Source: Candidatus Latescibacterota bacterium (GTDB lineage: Bacteria; Latescibacterota; UBA2968; GCA-2709665). From it: DNA of 64,000 nt. Under the pieces are notes generated by a model. It was given only the letters and a program-made list of their open reading frames with translations, did not search any database and was not told where the DNA came from. The stretch is taken from assembly GCA_965222075.1 (NCBI GenBank), contig OZ244937.1, positions 416,001-480,000 on the forward strand, given 5' to 3'. The position numbers and the translations under genes are program-made. This document shows, piece after piece, positions 354 to 16,466 of this stretch. Positions within the stretch are counted from its first letter, which is position 1. Each line of letters opens with the position of its first letter.

Positions 354-725
354 AGACGATGCCACTATAGGAAGAATTCCTGAACATGTTCGGGCTACAA
401 AGTTGCTCCGGGTTGAGTGATATAAATTTCATCCTGAAATCCTTTCTATAATGCTGAGGCCAGACGATTGCGTAGATTATCTGCTGGGAATATATACTCA
501 ATTTATACTGCCAACATATTCTTTACAAATCTTTTTACCCTACTACTAACGTTATGCAAAACTGGCGCAAGAAACCCAACACCCCCACCCAGAAAATCGC
601 GTACAAGAAACAATAACCACTCCATCCTGATTTCTTCACAGCGAATGGATTTACCTCTCGATCTCATTGTAAGCTCTGCGAGTTCACGCGAAGATCAGGG
701 AGTAATTCAATACCAGGAGAAACCA

Positions 726-2183
726 ATGACGGACGAGAAAGCGGCCTTCCTATTCATCGACAATACGTTAATCGAGAATCTCGACAGCGTCGTGCAAGGG
801 GTCGTACCCGCAAAGAAGGCTTCGCAACAGCCGCTGATTGAGAAGGATCGGGCCTGGGAAGAGGAGTGGCTGATCGGCGGCTACGTCAACGTCCTGTACG
901 ACGACGACGAAAATATCTTCAAGATGTGGTACGGCGTGGGCCGAAGATTGAGCGAAGCGCGTGGCGACGTGGCGGACGGACTGGCCTACGCCGTGTCCCA
1001 AGACGGGATCCACTGGGAAAAACCCGTCCTCAACCTCGTCGAGGACAGCGGCAGCAAAGAGAATAACCTGGTCTTTCCCTTTTTGAGGTGGGGGGCCGGG
1101 ACAGGAGTCATGAAAGACCCCATCGAAACAGACCCAGCCAAGCGCTACAAGATGCTCTTTATGTTCCAGAGCGGAGACATGATATTCGCCGGCATTGTCC
1201 AGCCGGTCTGTGTGGCGTATTCTGCCGACGGGATTCATTGGAACGTGCCCCAACGCTGGCTCAACCCGGTCATTCCACAGGGCTCGGATACCCACCTGGT
1301 CGCTTATTGGGATGCAAAAATTCACCGCTACGTCGTTTATCTGCGGGGCCGGCCTAACGTGCGCATCATTTGCATGGCCGAGAGCGATGATTTCGAAAAC
1401 TGGACCCCGCGCAAGATCATCGTCGCACCCGATGAGCACGATCCCCCGCAGGACCAGGAGTTTTACGGCATGAGTTCGCTGGCGTATCGCGACTTTCGTA
1501 TCGGCTTCCTGTCCGTGTTTCACACGCTCCACGAGGGGTGGATCGCCCAGAACCAGATCGAAGATTGGATGCCCGAATGGATGAACCAGATGGACATTCA
1601 GTTGACCTACTCGAAGAACGGCCGGACCTGGCATCGGGCGGGCAACCGTGAACCCATTCTGGAATGTGGCCCCCGCGGTAGCCACGACAGTGGAAATGTC
1701 TATCCGTCTCATGCCCCCTTTGTCCGCGACGACGAGATCTGGGTCTATCACAGCTGCTCAAACGAATTGCACGGCGAGGGGACGCGCTACGGCGAAGAAT
1801 CCCGGCGGGGAATCAATCTGGCAAAGATCGAAAAGGATCGGCTGGTCTGTCTGAAGACGGAGGCGCAGGGGGTCGTGACCACGGTCCCGCTGAGTATCGA
1901 GCCCAATGCATTGTGGATCAACGCCGATGCGACCGGCGGGTCACTGCGAGTGGAGATAGTCGATCCGTTTGACCGGGTCGTGCCGGGTTTTGGCAAAGAA
2001 GACTGCAGACTCTTCTCAGCGAATGAAACAGAATACCGGGTACAATGGAAAAGCGATCCGGCAGGCGCAGTCGGGGACAAAGAGGATGGGCTCGAAGAGA
2101 AGATGGTCTCACAGCCACGCGGAGGTGTTAAGGTCAAAGTGTACCTGGACCGCGCCAAGCTGTTTGCTCTTTATGCGTCCTGA
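726..2183 (+). CDS. Glycoside hydrolase-like five-bladed beta-propeller protein
   Basis: YAVSQDGIHWEKP, YSADGIHW and YSKNGRTWHR Asp-box-like repeats. RBS CAGGAGA precedes ATG 726. Confidence 0.7.
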   Translation: MTDEKAAFLFIDNTLIENLDSVVQGVVPAKKASQQPLIEKDRAWEEEWLIGGYVNVLYDDDENIFKMWYGVGRRLSEARGDVADGLAYAVSQDGIHWEKPVLNLVEDSGSKENNLVFPFLRWGAGTGVMKDPIETDPAKRYKMLFMFQSGDMIFAGIVQPVCVAYSADGIHWNVPQRWLNPVIPQGSDTHLVAYWDAKIHRYVVYLRGRPNVRIICMAESDDFENWTPRKIIVAPDEHDPPQDQEFYGMSSLAYRDFRIGFLSVFHTLHEGWIAQNQIEDWMPEWMNQMDIQLTYSKNGRTWHRAGNREPILECGPRGSHDSGNVYPSHAPFVRDDEIWVYHSCSNELHGEGTRYGEESRRGINLAKIEKDRLVCLKTEAQGVVTTVPLSIEPNALWINADATGGSLRVEIVDPFDRVVPGFGKEDCRLFSANETEYRVQWKSDPAGAVGDKEDGLEEKMVSQPRGGVKVKVYLDRAKLFALYAS

Positions 2184-2304
2184 AGTAATTTGGGGGTTCA
2201 ACAATCATCCACGGCGAATAAACTGCATCGATTTTTTCGGCTACGAATGGAATATGCCGAACTTTCTCCGCAGAATCACAAGTCAGGCCGTACGGAGGTC
2301 CACT

Positions 2305-3432
2305 ATGAAGTGGGAACTGCTGCATCCGGACCAGGAGCAAGCCGAGGATGTACCCTGTAGGCGGGCGGCCTTCGGCGGGATGTTGAGCTACAATGGATGC
2401 GTCTACCTGTTCGGGGGGATAAAAGTGATGTACGGCCGGCCGAAAGGCCCTGGAGATCTTTCCGTCCAGGGCTCATTGAACGACCTGTGGCGCTACGACC
2501 CGGGTCGAGGCCGGTGGACGCGGTTGGAAGACCACGATGGGCGCATCGGGTTCAGGCCGTCCGATACCAGACCGTGTACCCGGAAGCTCACGACCTGGCT
2601 GCCCGTGAACGGCAGGCTTTATCTTTTCGGCGGGTCCTCGGTGCGGGGCCCCGGCAAGGGGGCGATCAAGCTGAACGATCTCTGGGCCTACGATCCGAAG
2701 ACAGCCTCGTGGGAGCTGTTAGAGCCCGACGACGGGCGCGCATCAGGAATACCGGTGGATGGGCATCGTCCCGCCGGTTCGGGCGGGATGGGGGCGGCCG
2801 TTCTGGGTGATTACCTGTATCTGATGGGGGGCCATGGCGCGATGACGCACGCACAGCTGTGGACCTACAAGGCGCCGGCCGGGAAATGGGAGCACCTGGG
2901 GCCTGCGTCGAATGGGCGCAACGGTTGGCCGCCGAAACGATACTGTCCCGTGCTGGTCGGCTGGAACGGCAGGCTCTACCTGTGGGGCGGTCGGGACAGT
3001 CAGGGTCGGGCGCCGGAGTTCTACAACGATCTGTGGGAATACGATCCCGACGGAGGCGCCTGGACCTGCATTCAGGAGAACCGGGCGGATGATGTTGCAC
3101 GGCCTTCCCCTCGGTACGGGCTGGGACACGCTGTGATCGGAGATTACCTGTATCTGTTCGGAGGATTTGCAGGAGGGGAAGGGGAGCACCCCCAGCTGAA
3201 CGATCTGTGGCAGTACGATCTTCGTGCCGGCCGGTGGGACTGTCTATATCCACACAACGGTGCGGAGGATTCCTCTGATGGCGCCGAACGTCCCGGCGTC
3301 AGGCGAATCCCCGTTATGGCAGTGGGGGGCGAGTCCGTATATCTCTTCGGGGGGCTGGACCTGGCTACCGGGCCGCACGGGGACGGGCCGCTGGCGGCGT
3401 ACAACGATTTCTGGCACGGAACACCGGCCTGA
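2305..3432 (+). CDS. Kelch-repeat beta-propeller protein
   Basis: Repeated LYLFGG...NDLWxYD units. RBS GGAGG precedes ATG 2305. Confidence 0.85.
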   Translation: MKWELLHPDQEQAEDVPCRRAAFGGMLSYNGCVYLFGGIKVMYGRPKGPGDLSVQGSLNDLWRYDPGRGRWTRLEDHDGRIGFRPSDTRPCTRKLTTWLPVNGRLYLFGGSSVRGPGKGAIKLNDLWAYDPKTASWELLEPDDGRASGIPVDGHRPAGSGGMGAAVLGDYLYLMGGHGAMTHAQLWTYKAPAGKWEHLGPASNGRNGWPPKRYCPVLVGWNGRLYLWGGRDSQGRAPEFYNDLWEYDPDGGAWTCIQENRADDVARPSPRYGLGHAVIGDYLYLFGGFAGGEGEHPQLNDLWQYDLRAGRWDCLYPHNGAEDSSDGAERPGVRRIPVMAVGGESVYLFGGLDLATGPHGDGPLAAYNDFWHGTPA

Positions 3433-3554: not shown

Positions 3555-3695
3555 AAGGGAGTATCACCAACTATTATGTTAGCTATCGCCACTGTGACGG
3601 TCGAGGCAACCTGAACACTGACGAGAATCCTCACAGCGGCGGGTATCGCGAGGCCGTTAACGGAAATCGCCCCTACCACCCCAAAGGAGGGAAAA

Positions 3696-5009
3696 ATGAA
3701 ACTCTGGGTATTCACCTGCAGTGACAGCCCGTTCGAACACTGGCTCGACGGGTTCGAGGAGCGGTTCGACGCCTGGGCGGATAGCGGCGTGCGCGGTCTG
3801 GCCGTCGGCCGCATGGCATTCCTCCAGGAGGATGGCACCGCCATTCCGGCGTGGGCTCCCGACCCGAAGGTGTACGAGGCCCTGGGGGCGGAAGTCCCGG
3901 AGCAGCGTCCGCGCGACCTCTCAAAAGAGAAGAAGCTGCACGCAATGCTGGACAACGCCGCGGAGCGGGGCTGGCGACTACTGATTTTCGCCGGAGGCGG
4001 CCCGACCGCCCACGTGCAGGACCAAATGAACGCCTTTCCACAGGTGCACGGCGTCATTGTCGACGGTCCGGGCGAAAACCACTACGAGCTGGCCTTCCAC
4101 CACGGGGGCGAGCTCCTGGAGATCCGTCCGGGTGAGGAGGGCCGCTTCGCCCAGGTCGGCGCCGAGATTGATCGAATACAACGCGGCATCACCCACTTTC
4201 GGGAGCGTTTGCACAATCTGACACCGGAAATGGTGCGGTACCACGCCGACGGGGGGATGCTGGGGGCAATGCTCCTGTTCGACGTCAACGAGGACGTGCT
4301 CTACTGGCTGCGCAAGCGGCAGGAGCTCTCTCGCTTCGACTGGCAGTACATGCGGCAACAGGTCGACGCCGTCGATCGCAAGGTGGAGCTGGGCGGTATC
4401 CCGCGGGCCGTGACGTGGTCATCGCTCACCGGACAGAATTACTGTCAGATGGCGGAGTATTTCGACTATATCTTTCCGAAACACTATTTTTGGCACCGCG
4501 GCATGGACGGCATGTACGGAACCATATCCCGCTGGGTAAGACGGTTGCGAAAGTGGAATCCGTCCCTGAGCGAGGCGGAGTGTTTCGCCGTAGTGAAGGC
4601 GCTGTTGGGCATCGAGCTGCCTGGCATCAACTCGCTTATGGACATGGAGATGGGTTTCCCCGACGAATTCTTCTCCAAGGTGGTCTACAACGAGACTCGG
4701 CGGGCCCTGGCGGCCATAGGTGATCCCGACAAGGTGATAGCCTGGGTGTCCACGGGGCGCCACCCCCACGGCGGCGACCCGATGCAGGCGCGCGATCTCT
4801 ACGGCATCCTGACTGCTTCGCAGGAGGCGGGGTTGAAGCGCTTCCTATACCATCCCGAGCCGGATTTCGGGGCGGCGGAATGGACCATCATCTCGTCGCT
4901 GTGCGGAAACCAATGGGATGAAGACGCCGACGGGTACTGGCCGACGGGGACCGACAAGCCAGGCGTCTGGGACGGCGGGCGCGAGGTACCCGAAGAGGGC
5001 CGAATATGA
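3696..5009 (+). CDS. Hypothetical protein, possibly TIM-barrel/glycoside hydrolase-like
   Basis: 437-aa ORF, RBS AGGAGG, host-like codon use, no diagnostic motif recognised. Confidence 0.6.
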   Translation: MKLWVFTCSDSPFEHWLDGFEERFDAWADSGVRGLAVGRMAFLQEDGTAIPAWAPDPKVYEALGAEVPEQRPRDLSKEKKLHAMLDNAAERGWRLLIFAGGGPTAHVQDQMNAFPQVHGVIVDGPGENHYELAFHHGGELLEIRPGEEGRFAQVGAEIDRIQRGITHFRERLHNLTPEMVRYHADGGMLGAMLLFDVNEDVLYWLRKRQELSRFDWQYMRQQVDAVDRKVELGGIPRAVTWSSLTGQNYCQMAEYFDYIFPKHYFWHRGMDGMYGTISRWVRRLRKWNPSLSEAECFAVVKALLGIELPGINSLMDMEMGFPDEFFSKVVYNETRRALAAIGDPDKVIAWVSTGRHPHGGDPMQARDLYGILTASQEAGLKRFLYHPEPDFGAAEWTIISSLCGNQWDEDADGYWPTGTDKPGVWDGGREVPEEGRI

Positions 5010-5197: not shown

Positions 5198-5337
5198 AGA
5201 AGCTGCCAGCACTGTCGTTCTTGCAGAGGCCCCTCAGCGGACGCTGGCACAGTCGGCGCTGCGGTTCGTAATTTATGGTGCACGCTGTATTACCGCCCCG
5301 CTCTCCAGACCGAGAGTGGCGACCCCGATGCGACTTC

Positions 5338-5488
5338 CGCTAACACGTAATTTGCGCTACGATCGCTTCGCTCCCTTGGCCCTTCGGGCACAGTTCCCTT
5401 TGTCACGTCGCTTGCTGAGAGACGCAAGCGCCGCGCCAATACGGCTTCGCCGGACCGGGTACCGTCGCAAATTTCGAGGACGTTATGC
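5338..5488 (+). mobile_element. attC-like recombination site 1
   Basis: R'' CGCTAAC 5338-5344, AATTTGCG 5349-5356 / CGCAAATT 5466-5473, R' GTTATGC 5482-5488, internal hairpins. Confidence 0.75.
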
Positions 5489-5503
5489 GAAAGTGAGTTC
5501 GTT

Positions 5504-6547
5504 TTGTTTAGAGCGGATCTCTTCCAAGCGCACTTGGAAAACTGGGAACTCATTCTACGGGCGCGAACCGTTGAAGCCATCGAACGGATCGCATCTGTTC
5601 CTGGCGTTGCGGGTGTGATTCTTGGGGGTAGCGTTGGGCGAGGAATAGCGTGGCCTATATCAGATATAGACCTCATCTACATTACTACCAGGGGGGCGGA
5701 CAACAGTCTTCCAAAAAGAGTGGACGAGCTTGCGTTGTCCATCACAAGGGAGTGGGCTCGAGACACGTGGCCGACGTCTGTTGACGCAGGTCGACTCCAT
5801 TTTACAGCCGACGAGGCAGACGACTTGATCAAAGGCAAGCGTCACTTAGATGAGCTGATGGCCAATGAGAGGACTTTCCATGCGACCGACAAGAGCCACC
5901 TCGGTCAATCAGTTCACGCGTCTGAGGATTGCGATACTCCTGCATTTGTTGTGCTACTTTCCGATGGTCGATTTGACCCATCGGTTGTCCGGGCACGCCA
6001 AATCGAGCGCGTCAGACGTGTAACCAGTCTCGCTCAGCGAGTTCAGTCACATCTGGAGGCAGGTAGTCTGGTTGAGGCAGGGATCTCTATACAGGAACTC
6101 GCGCGCGTGATAATCCCATATCTGAAGGAAAGGTGGGGGCATGGAGATCGGTCCTTTGGAAGGGTTTTCACTCGTTTTTGCGTTCTAGCTCACGAGCACC
6201 AGGAAGAAGGAATTGCGAGTCGCCTCATTCGACTGTTCTCTCTTACGGCGGATGAGATAGAAGCAAGGTACGCCAAGGCTCCCGCTAATGTTGTGGAGCG
6301 GCACATCACATCGTATCCATCCCGCCTGGCCGTGGGCGAGGAGATCACGGAGCTCGATGACAAACGCGATGTTCTGTATGCCTATACGTGGTATGCAGTT
6401 CGTACTGGTGAAACTGGTTCGTGGCTCCTCAATGAGGATCTACACAAGTCTCAACTCAAGTTGTCACTGGATCAAACAGCATCCATATGGGCCGAGGTGG
6501 TCTCGAAGGAGCCGGATTGCGTATCCAGCGAACTCACCTTCGCATAA
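5504..6547 (+). CDS. Pol-beta superfamily nucleotidyltransferase domain protein (gene cassette)
   Basis: ILGGSVGRG...SDIDL motif. Stop codon lies inside the GCATAAC R'' box. Confidence 0.75.
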   Translation: MFRADLFQAHLENWELILRARTVEAIERIASVPGVAGVILGGSVGRGIAWPISDIDLIYITTRGADNSLPKRVDELALSITREWARDTWPTSVDAGRLHFTADEADDLIKGKRHLDELMANERTFHATDKSHLGQSVHASEDCDTPAFVVLLSDGRFDPSVVRARQIERVRRVTSLAQRVQSHLEAGSLVEAGISIQELARVIIPYLKERWGHGDRSFGRVFTRFCVLAHEHQEEGIASRLIRLFSLTADEIEARYAKAPANVVERHITSYPSRLAVGEEITELDDKRDVLYAYTWYAVRTGETGSWLLNEDLHKSQLKLSLDQTASIWAEVVSKEPDCVSSELTFA

Positions 6548-6626
6548 CACGAGCACCCACGGCTTCGGCGCTGGCAAGCCTTCGCGCAACCGCATTCGTG
6601 GTTCGAGCAGGTCGAAACTGTTAGCC
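6542..6626 (+). mobile_element. attC-like recombination site 2
   Basis: GCATAAC 6542-6548 ... GTTAGCC 6620-6626. R'' is complementary to the GTTATGC at the start of its own cassette. Confidence 0.7.
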
Positions 6627-6660
6627 GACGTGCGAATGCCCTTCTCTTGAAAGAAATGCC

Positions 6661-7581
6661 TTGAATAACTTTGCTGACCGATTCGTTTTGAGGACGAGGG
6701 AGCTTGGCCACCCTCTGTGTGTTGGTATTGATCCCTATATAAACAAGATTCCTCCCGTTTTCCGTCGAAAAGACATGGCAGTCGGGTCCCCGGAGACATC
6801 GGAGGCGGTGTCTGATTTTTGTCTGGCAGTACTGGATCAGATTGCGGGAAGGGTTGCAATTGTAAAACCTCAGATCGCCTTATTTGAGCAACTTGGCTGG
6901 CGAGGAATCAGGACTCTCGAAAGGGTCATTCAAGCGGCACACGAGCGGGGTATGTTGGTGTTGTTAGATGCAAAAAGGGGGGATATCGGTGCAACGGCTG
7001 AAGGTTACGCGGTTGCATACCTCAGCGACTCAAGTTCTATGGCCGCGGATGCAATTACGGTAAATCCGTATATGGGCCGCGAAGCGATCGAGCCTTTTGT
7101 TCGTCGGGCTCGCGAAAGCGGCCGGGGTGTGGTAGTTCTCGTTCGAAACAGCAATCCGGGTGCGTCCGACTATCAGGACCTTCGGGTGGGCAATTGGACC
7201 CTGTTTGAGGAAGTAGCTGTTTCACTGAGGTCGTACCACGATGCTCTGATGGGTGAGGAAGTAGGATGGTCGTCCTTGTGCGTTACAACTGCCGCGACTC
7301 GACCAGACGACTCATTGAAAATACGGGCAATACTGCCTGATGCTCTGTTCCTCGTCTTGGGCTACGGAGCTCAGGGTGGTTGCCTGTCGGATACGCTTCA
7401 GGGATTTCGGCTGGGTCCCGGGGGATTGGAGGGAGGGATCGTGAATTCTTCCAGGTCTGTGCTTTATCCGGAGACTGGGCACACGGCGAATGCAGCCATG
7501 TGGGAAGACGCATTTCAACGCAATCTCGATGACATGATTGAGGCGCTTATGAATGCGGTTCAAACGGAGCACGTCGGCTAA
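6661..7581 (+). CDS. pyrF: Orotidine-5'-phosphate decarboxylase (gene cassette)
   Basis: LCVGIDP, KPQIALFE, LDAKRGDIGAT (DxKxxD), TVNPYMG, SNPGA, GYGAQGG, NSSR. Confidence 0.9.
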   Translation: MNNFADRFVLRTRELGHPLCVGIDPYINKIPPVFRRKDMAVGSPETSEAVSDFCLAVLDQIAGRVAIVKPQIALFEQLGWRGIRTLERVIQAAHERGMLVLLDAKRGDIGATAEGYAVAYLSDSSSMAADAITVNPYMGREAIEPFVRRARESGRGVVVLVRNSNPGASDYQDLRVGNWTLFEEVAVSLRSYHDALMGEEVGWSSLCVTTAATRPDDSLKIRAILPDALFLVLGYGAQGGCLSDTLQGFRLGPGGLEGGIVNSSRSVLYPETGHTANAAMWEDAFQRNLDDMIEALMNAVQTEHVG

Positions 7582-7686
7582 CAGCACGGTTCGCGCTGCG
7601 CCGCCCTTCATCCCTCGGCGTCGCGTCTATGCTCACATCAGCTTACATCTCTGCCTTCGCAGGTTGATGCCGACTATCCGTTACCT
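7576..7686 (+). mobile_element. attC-like recombination site 3 (degenerate)
   Basis: GGCTAAC 7576-7582 overlaps the pyrF stop. GTTACCT at 7680-7686. Inner pairing is weak. Confidence 0.5.
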
Positions 7687-7796: not shown

Positions 7797-7890
7797 TGTG
7801 GGGTGACGAGAAAGATGGATAAACAGGATAGACAGGATGAGAACTGAAAACCCTGAAATCCTGTTCATCCTGTCCATCCATGTGAATAAA
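7797..7890 (+). repeat. CAGGAT/ATCCTG palindromic repeat family A, copy 1
   Basis: GATGGATAAACAGGATAGACAGGAT...ATCCTGTTCATCCTGTCCATCC, near-identical to 8177-8269. Confidence 0.85.
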
Positions 7891-7910
7891 ACAGAAGACG
7901 GGAGTTGGTG

Positions 7911-8201
7911 ATGACCAGACAGTTGACAGCAATTATCGAACGCGAAAACGATGGCTACATCGTCCTCTGCCCTGAGTTGGACATCGCAAGTCAGGGAGCA
8001 ACCGTGGCTGAGGCTCGGGAAAATTTGAAGGAGGCATTGGAGTTGTTTTTCGAGACGGCTTCAGCCACCGAAATTCAGCAGCGGCTGCACGAGGAAGTGT
8101 ACGTAACGCAGGTGGAGGTCGCAGTTGGCCAGACTCCGGCGGATGGAGGGGAGGATTCGGGCGGCGATTGGGCGGATGTGGGGGACGAGAAAGATGGATA
8201 A
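7911..8201 (+). CDS. hicB: HicB-family antitoxin, copy 1 (stop codon lost, read-through tail)
   Basis: LTAIIERE.DGY..LCPELDIASQG.TVAEARENLKEALELF. CAG replaces the TAA present in copy 2. Confidence 0.8.
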   Translation: MTRQLTAIIERENDGYIVLCPELDIASQGATVAEARENLKEALELFFETASATEIQQRLHEEVYVTQVEVAVGQTPADGGEDSGGDWADVGDEKDG

Positions 8202-8269
8202 AGAGGATAGACAGGATGAGAACTGAAACCCCTGAAATCCTGTTCATCCTGTCCATCCATGTGAATAAA
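8177..8269 (+). repeat. Repeat family A, copy 2
   Basis: Direct repeat of 7797-7890. Confidence 0.85.
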
Positions 8270-8283
8270 TTTGGTGTGACAGA

Positions 8284-8343
8284 GCAGAGGCTGTTCGGGA
8301 ATTGCCCCAACACGGGTGGTGGTTGCCCGGGCACCGGGCGGGT
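8284..8343 (+). repeat. 60-bp direct repeat, copy 2
   Basis: Matches 29-88. Abuts the stop codon of the DMT gene. Confidence 0.9.
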
Positions 8344-13123: not shown

Positions 13124-14263
13124 TCAGGATAGGAATCGTGTGATTTGATAGGCGTCGATATCGGTTGTGAGGTCTTTGTTCAGCATGAGGTCGGCGATGA
13201 GTTTGCCGCTGTACGGGCCCAGCTGCAGGCCGGTGGGCCCATGCCCGGTTGCGAGGTAGACGTTCCGGATGTTGGGGACGGGTCCGAGTACGGGCAGGAA
13301 GTCTTCCGTGCAGGGGCGCAGGCCAACGCGAATTTCACGGATTTCAGCCGCGGCCAGGCCGGGCGCCACCCGGAGCGCTTCGGCGAGGACCTCCCGGACC
13401 CCGGCGGCCGTGGTGTGGGGTTCGAAACCGGATCCGGTTTCGCGCGTGGCGCCGACGACCACCCGATTGTCCGGCCAGGGCACCATGTAGTGGCCGCGAA
13501 GGGCGTTGATGATGCACCACGACGAAGTATCGGTGGTGGCGGGCAGGCCCAGGTGGATGATCTGACCGCGCTGGGGTTCTACAGGGATGTGAACGCTCAG
13601 CTGGTGGCCGAATGCGTGCGACCAGGCGCCGCCAGCGATCGCCACCTTGCCGGCTGAGATGGTCCGGCCGTCCGTGATGACACCGGTTACCGAGTCGTTT
13701 TCGGTGCGCAAGTGTTCAACGCTGGCGTGTTCGACGGCGAGTCCCCGGGCCTCGGCGGCACGGCGCAGGGCGGCTGTCAGGAGTCGGCCGTCAACGCGGG
13801 CGGCCTCACGGTAGTAGATGGCGCCCCGGACGTGGGCCAGGGCGGGGAAGCGGTTGCGGGCTTCTTCGGATGAGATTTCGTAGAGGTCTGCGGCAGCGGG
13901 CTCGCCGCGGTGACTCCGGCGGTTGAAAATGCGCCGGCGGGCAATGGCAAAGGGTTGCAGTTCGTCGTCCGAGACGGCGACGATCATCATGCCGCAGGTT
14001 GCAAAGCCGGTCTCGCCGTCCTGTTCGGCCCGCAGATTTTCGATCAGTCCGGGATAATATTTGACGGCAAGGGAGGCCAGACGCAGCCACGGGTCCGGGT
14101 CGCGGGTATTGGTGGCGGGAGACAGAATGCCCGCGCCCGCGTCGGTGGCGCGACCCGTGTCTTTCCGGTCGATGAGCAGGGTTCTGGCGCCGTCGCAGAC
14201 CAGGTGGTAGGCGGTGGACATGCCAACGATGCCGCCGCCGATGACAATGGCGTCATAAATCAT
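13124..14263 (-). CDS. FAD-dependent oxidoreductase (DAO/glycine oxidase-like)
   Basis: MIYDAIVIGGGIVG Rossmann start, VGLRP, ATGHG. Confidence 0.9.
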   Translation of the reverse strand: MIYDAIVIGGGIVGMSTAYHLVCDGARTLLIDRKDTGRATDAGAGILSPATNTRDPDPWLRLASLAVKYYPGLIENLRAEQDGETGFATCGMMIVAVSDDELQPFAIARRRIFNRRSHRGEPAAADLYEISSEEARNRFPALAHVRGAIYYREAARVDGRLLTAALRRAAEARGLAVEHASVEHLRTENDSVTGVITDGRTISAGKVAIAGGAWSHAFGHQLSVHIPVEPQRGQIIHLGLPATTDTSSWCIINALRGHYMVPWPDNRVVVGATRETGSGFEPHTTAAGVREVLAEALRVAPGLAAAEIREIRVGLRPCTEDFLPVLGPVPNIRNVYLATGHGPTGLQLGPYSGKLIADLMLNKDLTTDIDAYQITRFLS

Positions 14264-14268
14264 TTTCG

Positions 14269-14326
14269 TCCTGTTCATCCATGTGAATAAAACGGAAGAG
14301 GGGAGCCGGTGATAACCGGACAGCTG
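14269..14326 (+). repeat. Remnant of repeat A plus the first codons of hicB
   Basis: TCCTGTTCATCCATGTGAATAAAACGGAAGAGGGGAGCCGGTGATAACCGGACAGCTG aligns with 7868-7925. Confidence 0.7.
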
Positions 14327-14372: not shown

Positions 14373-14587
14373 CCCCATGCCTTCGGCGAGGCCTTTTTCT
14401 TGATCGCCCAAGAAAAAGGCCGAAAAAGAAGGGCGCCGCTCAAACGCCGCGGGGGCTGCTTTTCCGCGAACCGTCCCTGTGGTGGAAACGGGCGTTTGTG
14501 CCCTGCGAACCTTTGGGGTGTTGCTGGACGGTGTTGCTGGACGGAAACGCGCGGAAAAGCCCCATCCCCCCGCACCAGCCCGCAGGC
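14373..14587 (+). repeat. Repeat family B (about 215 bp), copy 1
   Basis: Inverted copy at 16742-16987. Contains hairpin GGCCTTTTTCTTG-ATCGCC-CAAGAAAAAGGCC. Confidence 0.85.
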
Positions 14588-14754
14588 GCGCCGGTAGGGG
14601 GGTCGCAGAGACAAGACGCGGCAACGATTTTCATCATTATGGGTGCCCCGAAGGGGGCATGACAACTGCTTTAAACATACGATACACCTCAGGTATTGGC
14701 AATAGAATTGTTGGAAATTTTCAGGGGACGGGTAACGGACGGACGGGGTGAAGA

Positions 14755-14866
14755 CCTCGCCGAAGGCATGGGGATGAAGGGGCGGTTCGCGAACCGCCCC
14801 TACGGGATGGTGGATGTGGACGGGGTTTGGATTGTCGTAGTAGGGGCAACCCTCGTGGTTGCCCTT
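14755..14866. repeat. End of repeat B plus two GTAG-type REP hairpins
   Basis: GGGGCGGTTCGCGAACCGCCCCTAC and GTAGGGGCAACCCTCGTGGTTGCCC. Confidence 0.75.
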
Positions 14867-16401: not shown

Positions 16402-16415
16402 CCGGGATCTACCGC

Positions 16416-16466
16416 ATGGACAGGAAGAAAACTGAAGACTCTGAAATCCTGTTCATCCATGTGAAT
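16416..16466 (+). repeat. Repeat family A, shortened copy upstream of hicB copy 2
   Basis: ATGGACAGGAAG...CTGAAATCCTGTTCATCCATGTGAAT. Confidence 0.75.

Follow-up and report, generated by a model that had tools for sequence, protein, structure and literature searches.

The 8.2-kb region near the start of a 64,000-nt stretch of a Candidatus Latescibacterota genome (assembly GCA_965222075.1, contig OZ244937.1, positions 416,001 to 480,000; hereafter the window) is probably a decaying remnant of an integron-like gene cassette array, served by a tyrosine recombinase other than IntI. The probability of this platform reading is put at roughly 0.7, while the role of each single feature is graded lower. 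Comparison with other genomes demonstrates that units are swapped at a GTT boundary, that the arrays share a platform layout, that the IntI insertion is missing from the integrase family, and that both inner and outer parts of the sites pair. By these comparisons, the system would be integron-like in behaviour, yet its recombinase falls outside IntI. An earlier interpretation of the window (the sequence-only reading) had described two cassettes with long inverted ends, which consist of the following features.

5482-5501, + strand: 5' arm of cassette 1, an inverted match to its 3' arm; homology to 13 loci begins at its GTT.
5504-6547, + strand: cassette 1 gene, a 347-aa nucleotidyltransferase-fold protein (homologue P0007 matches PF01909, E value 1.6e-5).
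6529-6548, + strand: 3' arm of cassette 1, encoding the last codons and the stop (19/20).
6620-6633, + strand: 5' arm of cassette 2, an inverted match to its 3' arm.
6661-7581, + strand: cassette 2 gene, orotidine-5'-phosphate decarboxylase (PyrF, subfamily 2; TIGR02127, 224 bits, cut-off 110.6).
7569-7582, + strand: 3' arm of cassette 2 (14/14).

The inverted matches of both cassettes (19 of 20 and 14 of 14 positions) are as the sequence-only reading had given them, and both stop codons lie, as it stated, in the TAAC box (TAA at 6545-6547 and at 7579-7581). All GTT..AAC pairs on the + strand of the window with a spacing of 150-3000 nt (n=25,134) served as chance background, among which cassette 2 is the sole pair with a perfect run of at least 12 and cassette 1 the sole pair matching at 19 of 20 positions (runner-up 17/20). 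The lone mismatch between the arms of cassette 1 falls on position 11 of the family alignment. The GC content of the region (0.53-0.57) is below that of its flanks (0.62-0.63). The protein of cassette 1 has 18 homologues and gave no direct match itself in the Pfam search. PyrF of cassette 2, a housekeeping enzyme carried here as a cassette, has its catalytic DxKxxD motif intact (residue 103).

A genome scan with the alignment of gene 1 led to 19 loci, mostly from Ca. Latescibacterota assemblies. DNA homology to cassette 1 begins at the GTT of the 5' arm in 13 of these loci, and the 14 copies of cassette 1 (window included) have eight distinct upstream neighbours, each ending at GTT, together with varied downstream neighbours. 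The pyrF gene is present in 0/19 loci related by gene 1, and its cassette has no second context among them (metagenome and viral contigs were outside the search). Such cassette ends were not found at the four most distant gene 1 homologues (Paenibacillus, Chloroflexota, Acidimicrobiales). Co-oriented cassettes are thus exchanged at a GTT boundary, as in integrons; the exact G/TT bond is beyond the resolution of the comparison, because the G is invariant. These changing contexts indicate that the two window genes are real mobile gene cassettes, as the sequence-only reading had proposed against a fixed operon. That reading had also named the finding that would undo it, namely both genes always occurring together without GTT/AAC ends; the genes are not always together and the GTT ends are kept in 13 loci. 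A fixed two-gene operon with terminators or repetitive extragenic palindromic (REP)-like repeats, in which the inverted repeats arose by chance, has a negligible probability: the varying neighbours of cassette 1 refute it, the arm match beyond chance, the family-wide arm pairing, the absence of pyrF from the loci and the shared junctions (below) all argue against it, and the poor folding of two of the three sites is all that speaks for it.

The sequence-only reading had further suspected a non-canonical tyrosine integrase behind this class of sites, which is borne out by integrases without the IntI insertion that head the arrays and share junctions with them. Upstream of the two cassettes, the window carries the remnant of such an enzyme and the traces of earlier cassettes.

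87-353, + strand: C-terminal remnant of a tyrosine recombinase, 88 aa (PF00589; 84% identical to full-length P0146).
551-564, + strand: first 5' arm of cassette type downstream of the integrase remnant (arm profile score 11.1; aligns to a cassette start in L006).
3656-3670, + strand: 5' arm that probably belongs to an upstream 'cassette 0' (matches the arm left of site 1 at 13/15 positions, position 11 unpaired).
3696-5009, + strand: 437-aa open reading frame, probable cassette 0 (no Pfam or NCBIfam match).
5330-5344, + strand: 3' arm to the left of site 1, with TAAC at its end (pairs with the 5' arm of cassette 0).

In three of the related loci (L002, L003 and L013), the array begins about 130 bp past the 3' end of the integrase, where shared sequence is followed by different cassettes. 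When the 30 nt before the GTT were compared with the 30 nt after it, 25 vs 8 positions were identical between L002 and L013, 30 vs 6 between two Persicobacter loci (L020/L021), and 29 vs 6 between two Chryseobacterium loci (L030/L032). This attI-like junction lies 39-172 bp 3' of a co-oriented integrase, an arrangement that agrees with reverse integrons only and not with canonical ones, in which attI adjoins the 5' side of an integrase divergent from the array. In all of eight Bacteroidota plasmid loci, picked as top integrase matches, a GTT junction follows an intact co-oriented integrase at a distance of 39-144 bp, and several sites were recognized by rule in four of them and by eye in three, the remaining one having a single gene. 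The folding of the attI-like sites is mixed, and the proposal that all of them are hairpins was dropped, as only 4/13 fold at ≤2/200 shuffles and 3/13 have no fold. No IntI-type gene was detected in the window or in the 19 loci (about 20 kb per genome covered). In the window itself, the attI-like sequence of the relatives is not conserved upstream of the arm at 551-564. The arm at 3656-3670 sits after a complete site in L007, and the stretch of cassette 0 possibly arose from two fused cassettes. Immediately downstream of the stop codon of the integrase, a 10-nt palindrome is conserved in the window (382-391), L002, L003 and L013, which we take to resemble a LexA box of the Gram-positive type.

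The integrase remnant groups with P0146 in the phylogenetic tree (support 100/92), in which the placement of IntI1 is unreliable owing to its long branch. Both segments of the IntI insertion are absent from P0146, P0148 and the Bacteroidota relatives in the alignment with IntI1, and the motif spacing is 58-63 in 148 of the 150 measurable relatives (155 relatives, five unmeasurable), against 100 in IntI1. Since the window fragment starts 3' of the insertion site, the absence of the insertion rests on the 84%-identical P0146. Full-length members of the family possess SAM_4 and catalytic domains, and they score 213 bits with TIGR02249, below its cut-off of 265, and just above the cut-off of NF040815. 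A recurring 200-214-aa form without the N-terminal and core-binding domains (P0139-P0145) is 84-89% identical to the window fragment. Three shorter relatives without the N-terminal domain, from Clostridium, Rhizobium (both IS91-linked) and a Leptospira phage, have no array.

An extra N-terminal domain is present in 126 of the 155 relatives, in one to three copies, and in six of the seven Bacteroidota array integrases tested. The domain model has a beta-beta-alpha-beta-beta-alpha topology. Pfam HARP was matched in 34/100 relatives at E values up to 1 (best 7.1e-8), and fold matches include 2oca (Z 5.2, root-mean-square deviation 2.1, 55 aligned residues) and 4o66 (Z 3.8, root-mean-square deviation 1.8, 44 aligned); the ESM Atlas search with this domain returned only unnamed Bacteroidota clusters below 0.9. 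These models give the domain a weak likeness to HARP. HARP domains bind DNA junctions and aid annealing.

Three attC-like sites lie between and beside the window cassettes.

5338-5488, - strand: site 1, attC-like hairpin, inner stem of 8 bp (fold z -2.45; 28.4 bits; putative crossover G5482/TT).
6542-6626, - strand: site 2, attC-like, apparently chimeric (48.6 bits; half-site comparison; putative crossover G6620/TT).
7576-7686, - strand: site 3, degenerate attC-like (left half resembles family sites; fold z -0.64).

The lengths that the sequence-only reading had assigned to these spacers hold (150, 85 and 111 nt as measured), while its view of them as unrelated does not, as sites 1 and 2 match one covariance model (28.4 and 48.6 bits) built only from sites of other genomes. 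The model was trained on 18 sites chosen by eye, core to core without flanks, and it missed site 3, so that the right boundary of the latter (7680-7686) is only tentative. A scan of 409 kb with it gave 100 matches (E values up to 5), every one of them on the bottom strand. Among 47 fitted matches, an alignment that contains the training sites and is biased towards the model, 18 of the 23 inner-stem pairs have two-sided changes (0/500 shuffles), and 83% of stem positions pair, against at most 42% in slid controls. A perfect stem of at least 6 is present in 45 of 88 sites, and in these the right spacer is longer by 1-4 nt. A conserved extrahelical G in L'' was not seen on inspection of the alignment by eye, without a formal count. 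According to the attC plan, with R'' (AAC) and R' (GTT) boxes, an unpaired asymmetric spacer and an L''/L' stem, site 1 fits, site 2 fits partly and site 3 fits poorly.

The poor inner stems that had been noted at sites 2 and 3 were confirmed by the bottom-strand fold (z of +0.91 and -0.64, vs -2.45 for site 1). In the half-site comparison, the left half of site 2 appears to be the own site of cassette 1 and the right half to come from another site type. The homologous long site in L006/L013 differs from window site 1 in its inner stem, which is still paired. Because cassette 1 owns a well-paired site in relatives, the poor stems of sites 2 and 3 seem to reflect decay and chimerism in the window genome. 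Rfam and ARAGORN found nothing in the window, Rfam assigned the sites of three Latescibacterota loci to no family, and on six Bacteroidota loci it returned group II introns and DUF805 only; the idea that the sites are an already catalogued RNA motif is therefore unsupported. A blastn search of plasmids with site 1 and two typical sites gave short chance matches only.

The covarying inner stems, whose sequence varies freely, indicate recognition of structure rather than of sequence. They argue against Xer-like recombination of double-stranded core sites, in which the arms would be boxes for protein binding and the hairpin would be of minor importance, as does the fact that recombining partners have only the core triplets in common. 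Such a mechanism would agree with the closest fold of the integrase, that of archaeal XerA (Z 21.8), with the few attI-like sites that fold well at the 1% level (4/13), and with the absence here of the IntI insertion, which is described as essential for integron function in the accessible sections of PMC8138268; on balance, it is considered quite improbable.

For the outer arms, 91 of the 100 model matches (nine weak ones dropped) and three hand-added sites delimited 79 intervals, 70 of them under 2 kb, from which a final Latescibacterota set of 42 non-redundant cassettes was obtained, with poor ones kept and both window cassettes included. At positions 8-16, the own arms match at 5.33 positions on average, vs 3.29 when arms are permuted (0/5000), and positions 21-30 show no excess (2.67 vs 2.48). 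The complementarity, a family trait, spans about 14-16 nt. The window cassettes are the best paired of the family, and a perfect run of 14 is seen in 1/42. The arms are specific to each cassette at positions 5-7, 9-10 and 12-14, and the 3' arms invariably carry G at position 8 (42/42). At position 11, the 5' arm has an A in 38/42 cassettes, opposite a G (complement of the 3' arm) in 34/42, which makes a T.G wobble on the bottom strand; this position is matched in about 6/42. The same was found in 15 Bacteroidota cassettes, whose limits were set from inner stems within gene intervals picked after seeing the loci: positions 8-16 match at 5.00 vs 2.61 permuted (0/5000), and all 5' arms have A at position 11 (15/15), which is never matched (0/15). 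A count of stop-codon positions in the 42 Latescibacterota cassettes was not informative (24 of them 'far').

The sequence-only reading took 7 bp of complementarity to be all that is known and the extension to be unusual. This does not hold, since Bouvier 2009, in the available part of PMC2727003, gives 9-11 complementary nt for most cassettes, and eight class 1 cassettes, whose ends were picked by best match and are hence biased towards pairing, show excess pairing too. Class 1 pairing fades after about position 12 (positions 12-16, 1.62 vs 1.11; 198/5000), and position 11 is paired in 7/8. The extension itself is therefore known, and the difference lies in its length and in the fixed unpaired base. 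As the sequence-only reading had expected, the excised circle gains an outer stem when linear and circular bottom-strand folds are compared: the mean core-pairing probability is 0.14 in the array and 0.54 in the modelled circle, an increase that is partly by construction.

The outer complementarity could alternatively be a footprint of cassette making, through copying of an end or insertion of a hairpin around a gene, and play no part in recombination. The platform reading would accommodate such a footprint, which is regarded as possible, though somewhat unlikely. Copying would pair position 11, which is instead a fixed A that is seldom or never matched; position 8 is invariant, and a cassette homologue in L015 (43% identical) differs on both arms at positions 6 and 13. 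The cassette-specific positions of the arms fit a footprint, as does their decay without compensation in close homologues, and cassette genesis is described as largely unknown in the part of PMC5371416 available. The 3' arm of cassette 2 also lengthens PyrF by a few C-terminal residues beyond the end of more distant homologues; this C-terminus is common to three close homologues and has a variant form in a fourth, and the PyrF termini suggest that the 3' arm was added to the gene. The converse would be a native gene end copied to the 5' side; the end of L014 fits the arm consensus as well. In L004 (4302-4412), a cassette of about 107 nt has no gene, and its two arms form a single 31-nt near-palindrome.

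An ordinary cluster of attC sites lacking an integron integrase (CALIN), with canonical attC sites, a standard IntI elsewhere in the genome and the Xer-like integrase as a chance neighbour or former platform, would also account for an array without an intact integrase nearby. The sites follow the attC plan in their AAC/GTT boxes, asymmetric spacer and inner stem, the window fragment scores best with the integron integrase model of NCBIfam, extended arm pairing is generic according to the class 1 control and PMC2727003, and CALINs are common, half of them in genomes with IntI as far as the accessible text of PMC4889954 goes. Against this, the same integrase and adjoining sequence precede different first cassettes in three genera, and intact insertion-less integrases head the Bacteroidota plasmid arrays, with no annotated IntI in the stretches examined. 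Moreover, position 11 is unpaired in both phyla and paired in class 1 cassettes, and class 1 loci barely score under the family covariance model (best 12.5 bits). A CALIN of this kind is thus held to be unlikely. The window remnant is not an intI pseudogene by family, because its full-length relatives lack the IntI domain.

Several observations weigh against the platform reading. The roughly 20 kb seen per genome leave room for an IntI elsewhere, the integrases beside Latescibacterota arrays are 3' fragments only (window, L002, L003 and L013), and full-length P0146 and P0148 come without genomic context. Relatives with the same short catalytic domain are linked to IS91 and free of arrays. For the N-terminal domain, the Persicobacter integrase has no match to the domain model, the HARP match of P0146 is weak (Pfam E value 0.057), and the top fold match is an unrelated ACT-like protein (Z 5.7). 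For the arms, the run does not exceed 5 in 25 of the 42 cassettes although wobbles are allowed, arm drift among close homologues of cassette 1 comes without compensatory change, wobbles outside position 11 have a modest bottom-strand bias (42 vs 26), and the excess at positions 8-16 is just as high in the class 1 cassettes (5.00 vs 2.76).

In the proposed mechanism, the integrase, like IntI, would cleave a folded single strand at G/TT, and the recombination site would reach about 15 nt beyond the core on each side. Integration would split this site, leaving the outer stem to exist only in the excised circle, which would favour integration over excision. The unpaired position 11 could be a mark for recognition or strand choice, and the HARP-like domain might bind or anneal the junction of single- and double-stranded DNA in place of the IntI insertion. 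As the integrase of the window is truncated, its array would be an orphan unless an intact copy is present elsewhere in the genome.

Whether these arrays form a second, undescribed class of integrons in at least Latescibacterota and Bacteroidota, with an insertion-less HARP-like integrase, folded single-stranded sites and a cassette-specific outer stem with unpaired position 11, is evenly balanced on comparative grounds. They share with integrons (IntI/attI/attC; class 1 and sedentary chromosomal) co-oriented single-gene cassettes, hairpin sites bounded by AAC and GTT with exchange at GTT, a stop codon in or near the AAC box, circle pairing past 7 nt, and a tyrosine recombinase with SAM_4 and catalytic domains. 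They differ from them in an array integrase without the IntI insertion and with the extra N-terminal domain(s), in the place of the integrase gene, which precedes the array, is co-oriented with it and has the attI-like junction at the 3' end, and in outer pairing that reaches 14-16 nt and includes a fixed unpaired A11; a canonical extrahelical G in L'' was not evident. The reverse (inverted-integrase) integrons of Treponema likewise have an integrase co-oriented with the array; unlike the enzymes here, theirs is treated as an IntI with canonical attC (protruding G) in the accessible accounts.

The NCBI name of NF040815, 'site-specific tyrosine recombinase/integron integrase', already cites the integron integrase, and the family also takes in IS91-linked enzymes without arrays. 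For the insertion-less members of NF040815 and of the 'integron-like' subgroup of Smyshlyaev et al. 2021, no arrays, att sites or HARP-like domains are described in the available portions of these sources; PMC8138268, in its accessible part, calls the insertion 'not fully conserved' in its integron-like subgroup. The N-terminal domain resembles HARP (SMARCAL1, T4 UvsW, XPB N-terminal) in model topology and in the weak 2oca and 4o66 matches, and differs in being fused to an integrase in one to three copies and in fold scores not above those of unrelated ACT-like proteins. In the open literature (subscription journals were outside the search), no insertion-less or HARP-fused integrase driving arrays was found, nor a position-11 mismatch. 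The IntI insertion is used as the defining mark of integron integrases and as a filter for counting integrons, according to the parts available of PMC9024848 and bioRxiv 2022.02.06.479319.

The long inverted ends by themselves would make a modest finding; the larger one would be the platform. If the platform reading is true, phyla regarded as nearly free of integrons contain a large gene-capture platform that has gone unnoticed, hairpin recombination chemistry has a second solution without the IntI insertion, and the system would be invisible to IntI-based screens, which would explain the apparent rarity of integrons in Bacteroidota. The split outer stem and fixed unpaired base would offer a testable handle on directionality and cassette making. 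The system may also have been the route by which tet(X3) was first captured. On the Acinetobacter indicus plasmid NZ_CP041290.1 (L035, 5716-7700), a truncated co-oriented integrase of the array-linked family is located 5' of tet(X3). This gene begins past a palindromic attI-like junction (6415) and runs to an AAC box (7624), and its arms match at 10/14 positions, with A11 unpaired and positions 5-7 mismatched. This tet(X3) may be a cassette of the insertion-less integrase system.

In the Bacteroidota loci, group II introns (L024 8708-9988; L030 15726-17042) and most IS110 elements (L022, L029 and L030) lie antisense between cassette genes, in a manner reminiscent of elements that target attC; antisense insertion of attC-targeting group II introns has been published, to the extent that source was accessible. 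In L031 (14233-14302), the Rfam DUF805 RNA motif occurs within a cassette, upstream of a DUF805 gene.

Other features of the window lie around the array. A 60-nt direct repeat (29-88 and 8284-8343; 93%) brackets the entire 8.2-kb region, with the integrase remnant beginning exactly at its first copy; the repeat is absent from the 19 loci. Glycoside-hydrolase-like and kelch-repeat genes (468-3432) form a block that travels near such arrays in several relatives and lies between sites in L006/L013. A 90-nt palindromic repeat family was identified at 7801-7890, 8180-8269, 14257-14326 and 16405-16458, two copies of which flank a 98-aa open reading frame (7905-8201) that is HicB-like by eye and has no Pfam or NCBIfam match. 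Finally, a 23-nt inverted repeat (14373-14395 and 14751-14773; 96%) surrounds 355 nt and is possibly a small non-autonomous element.

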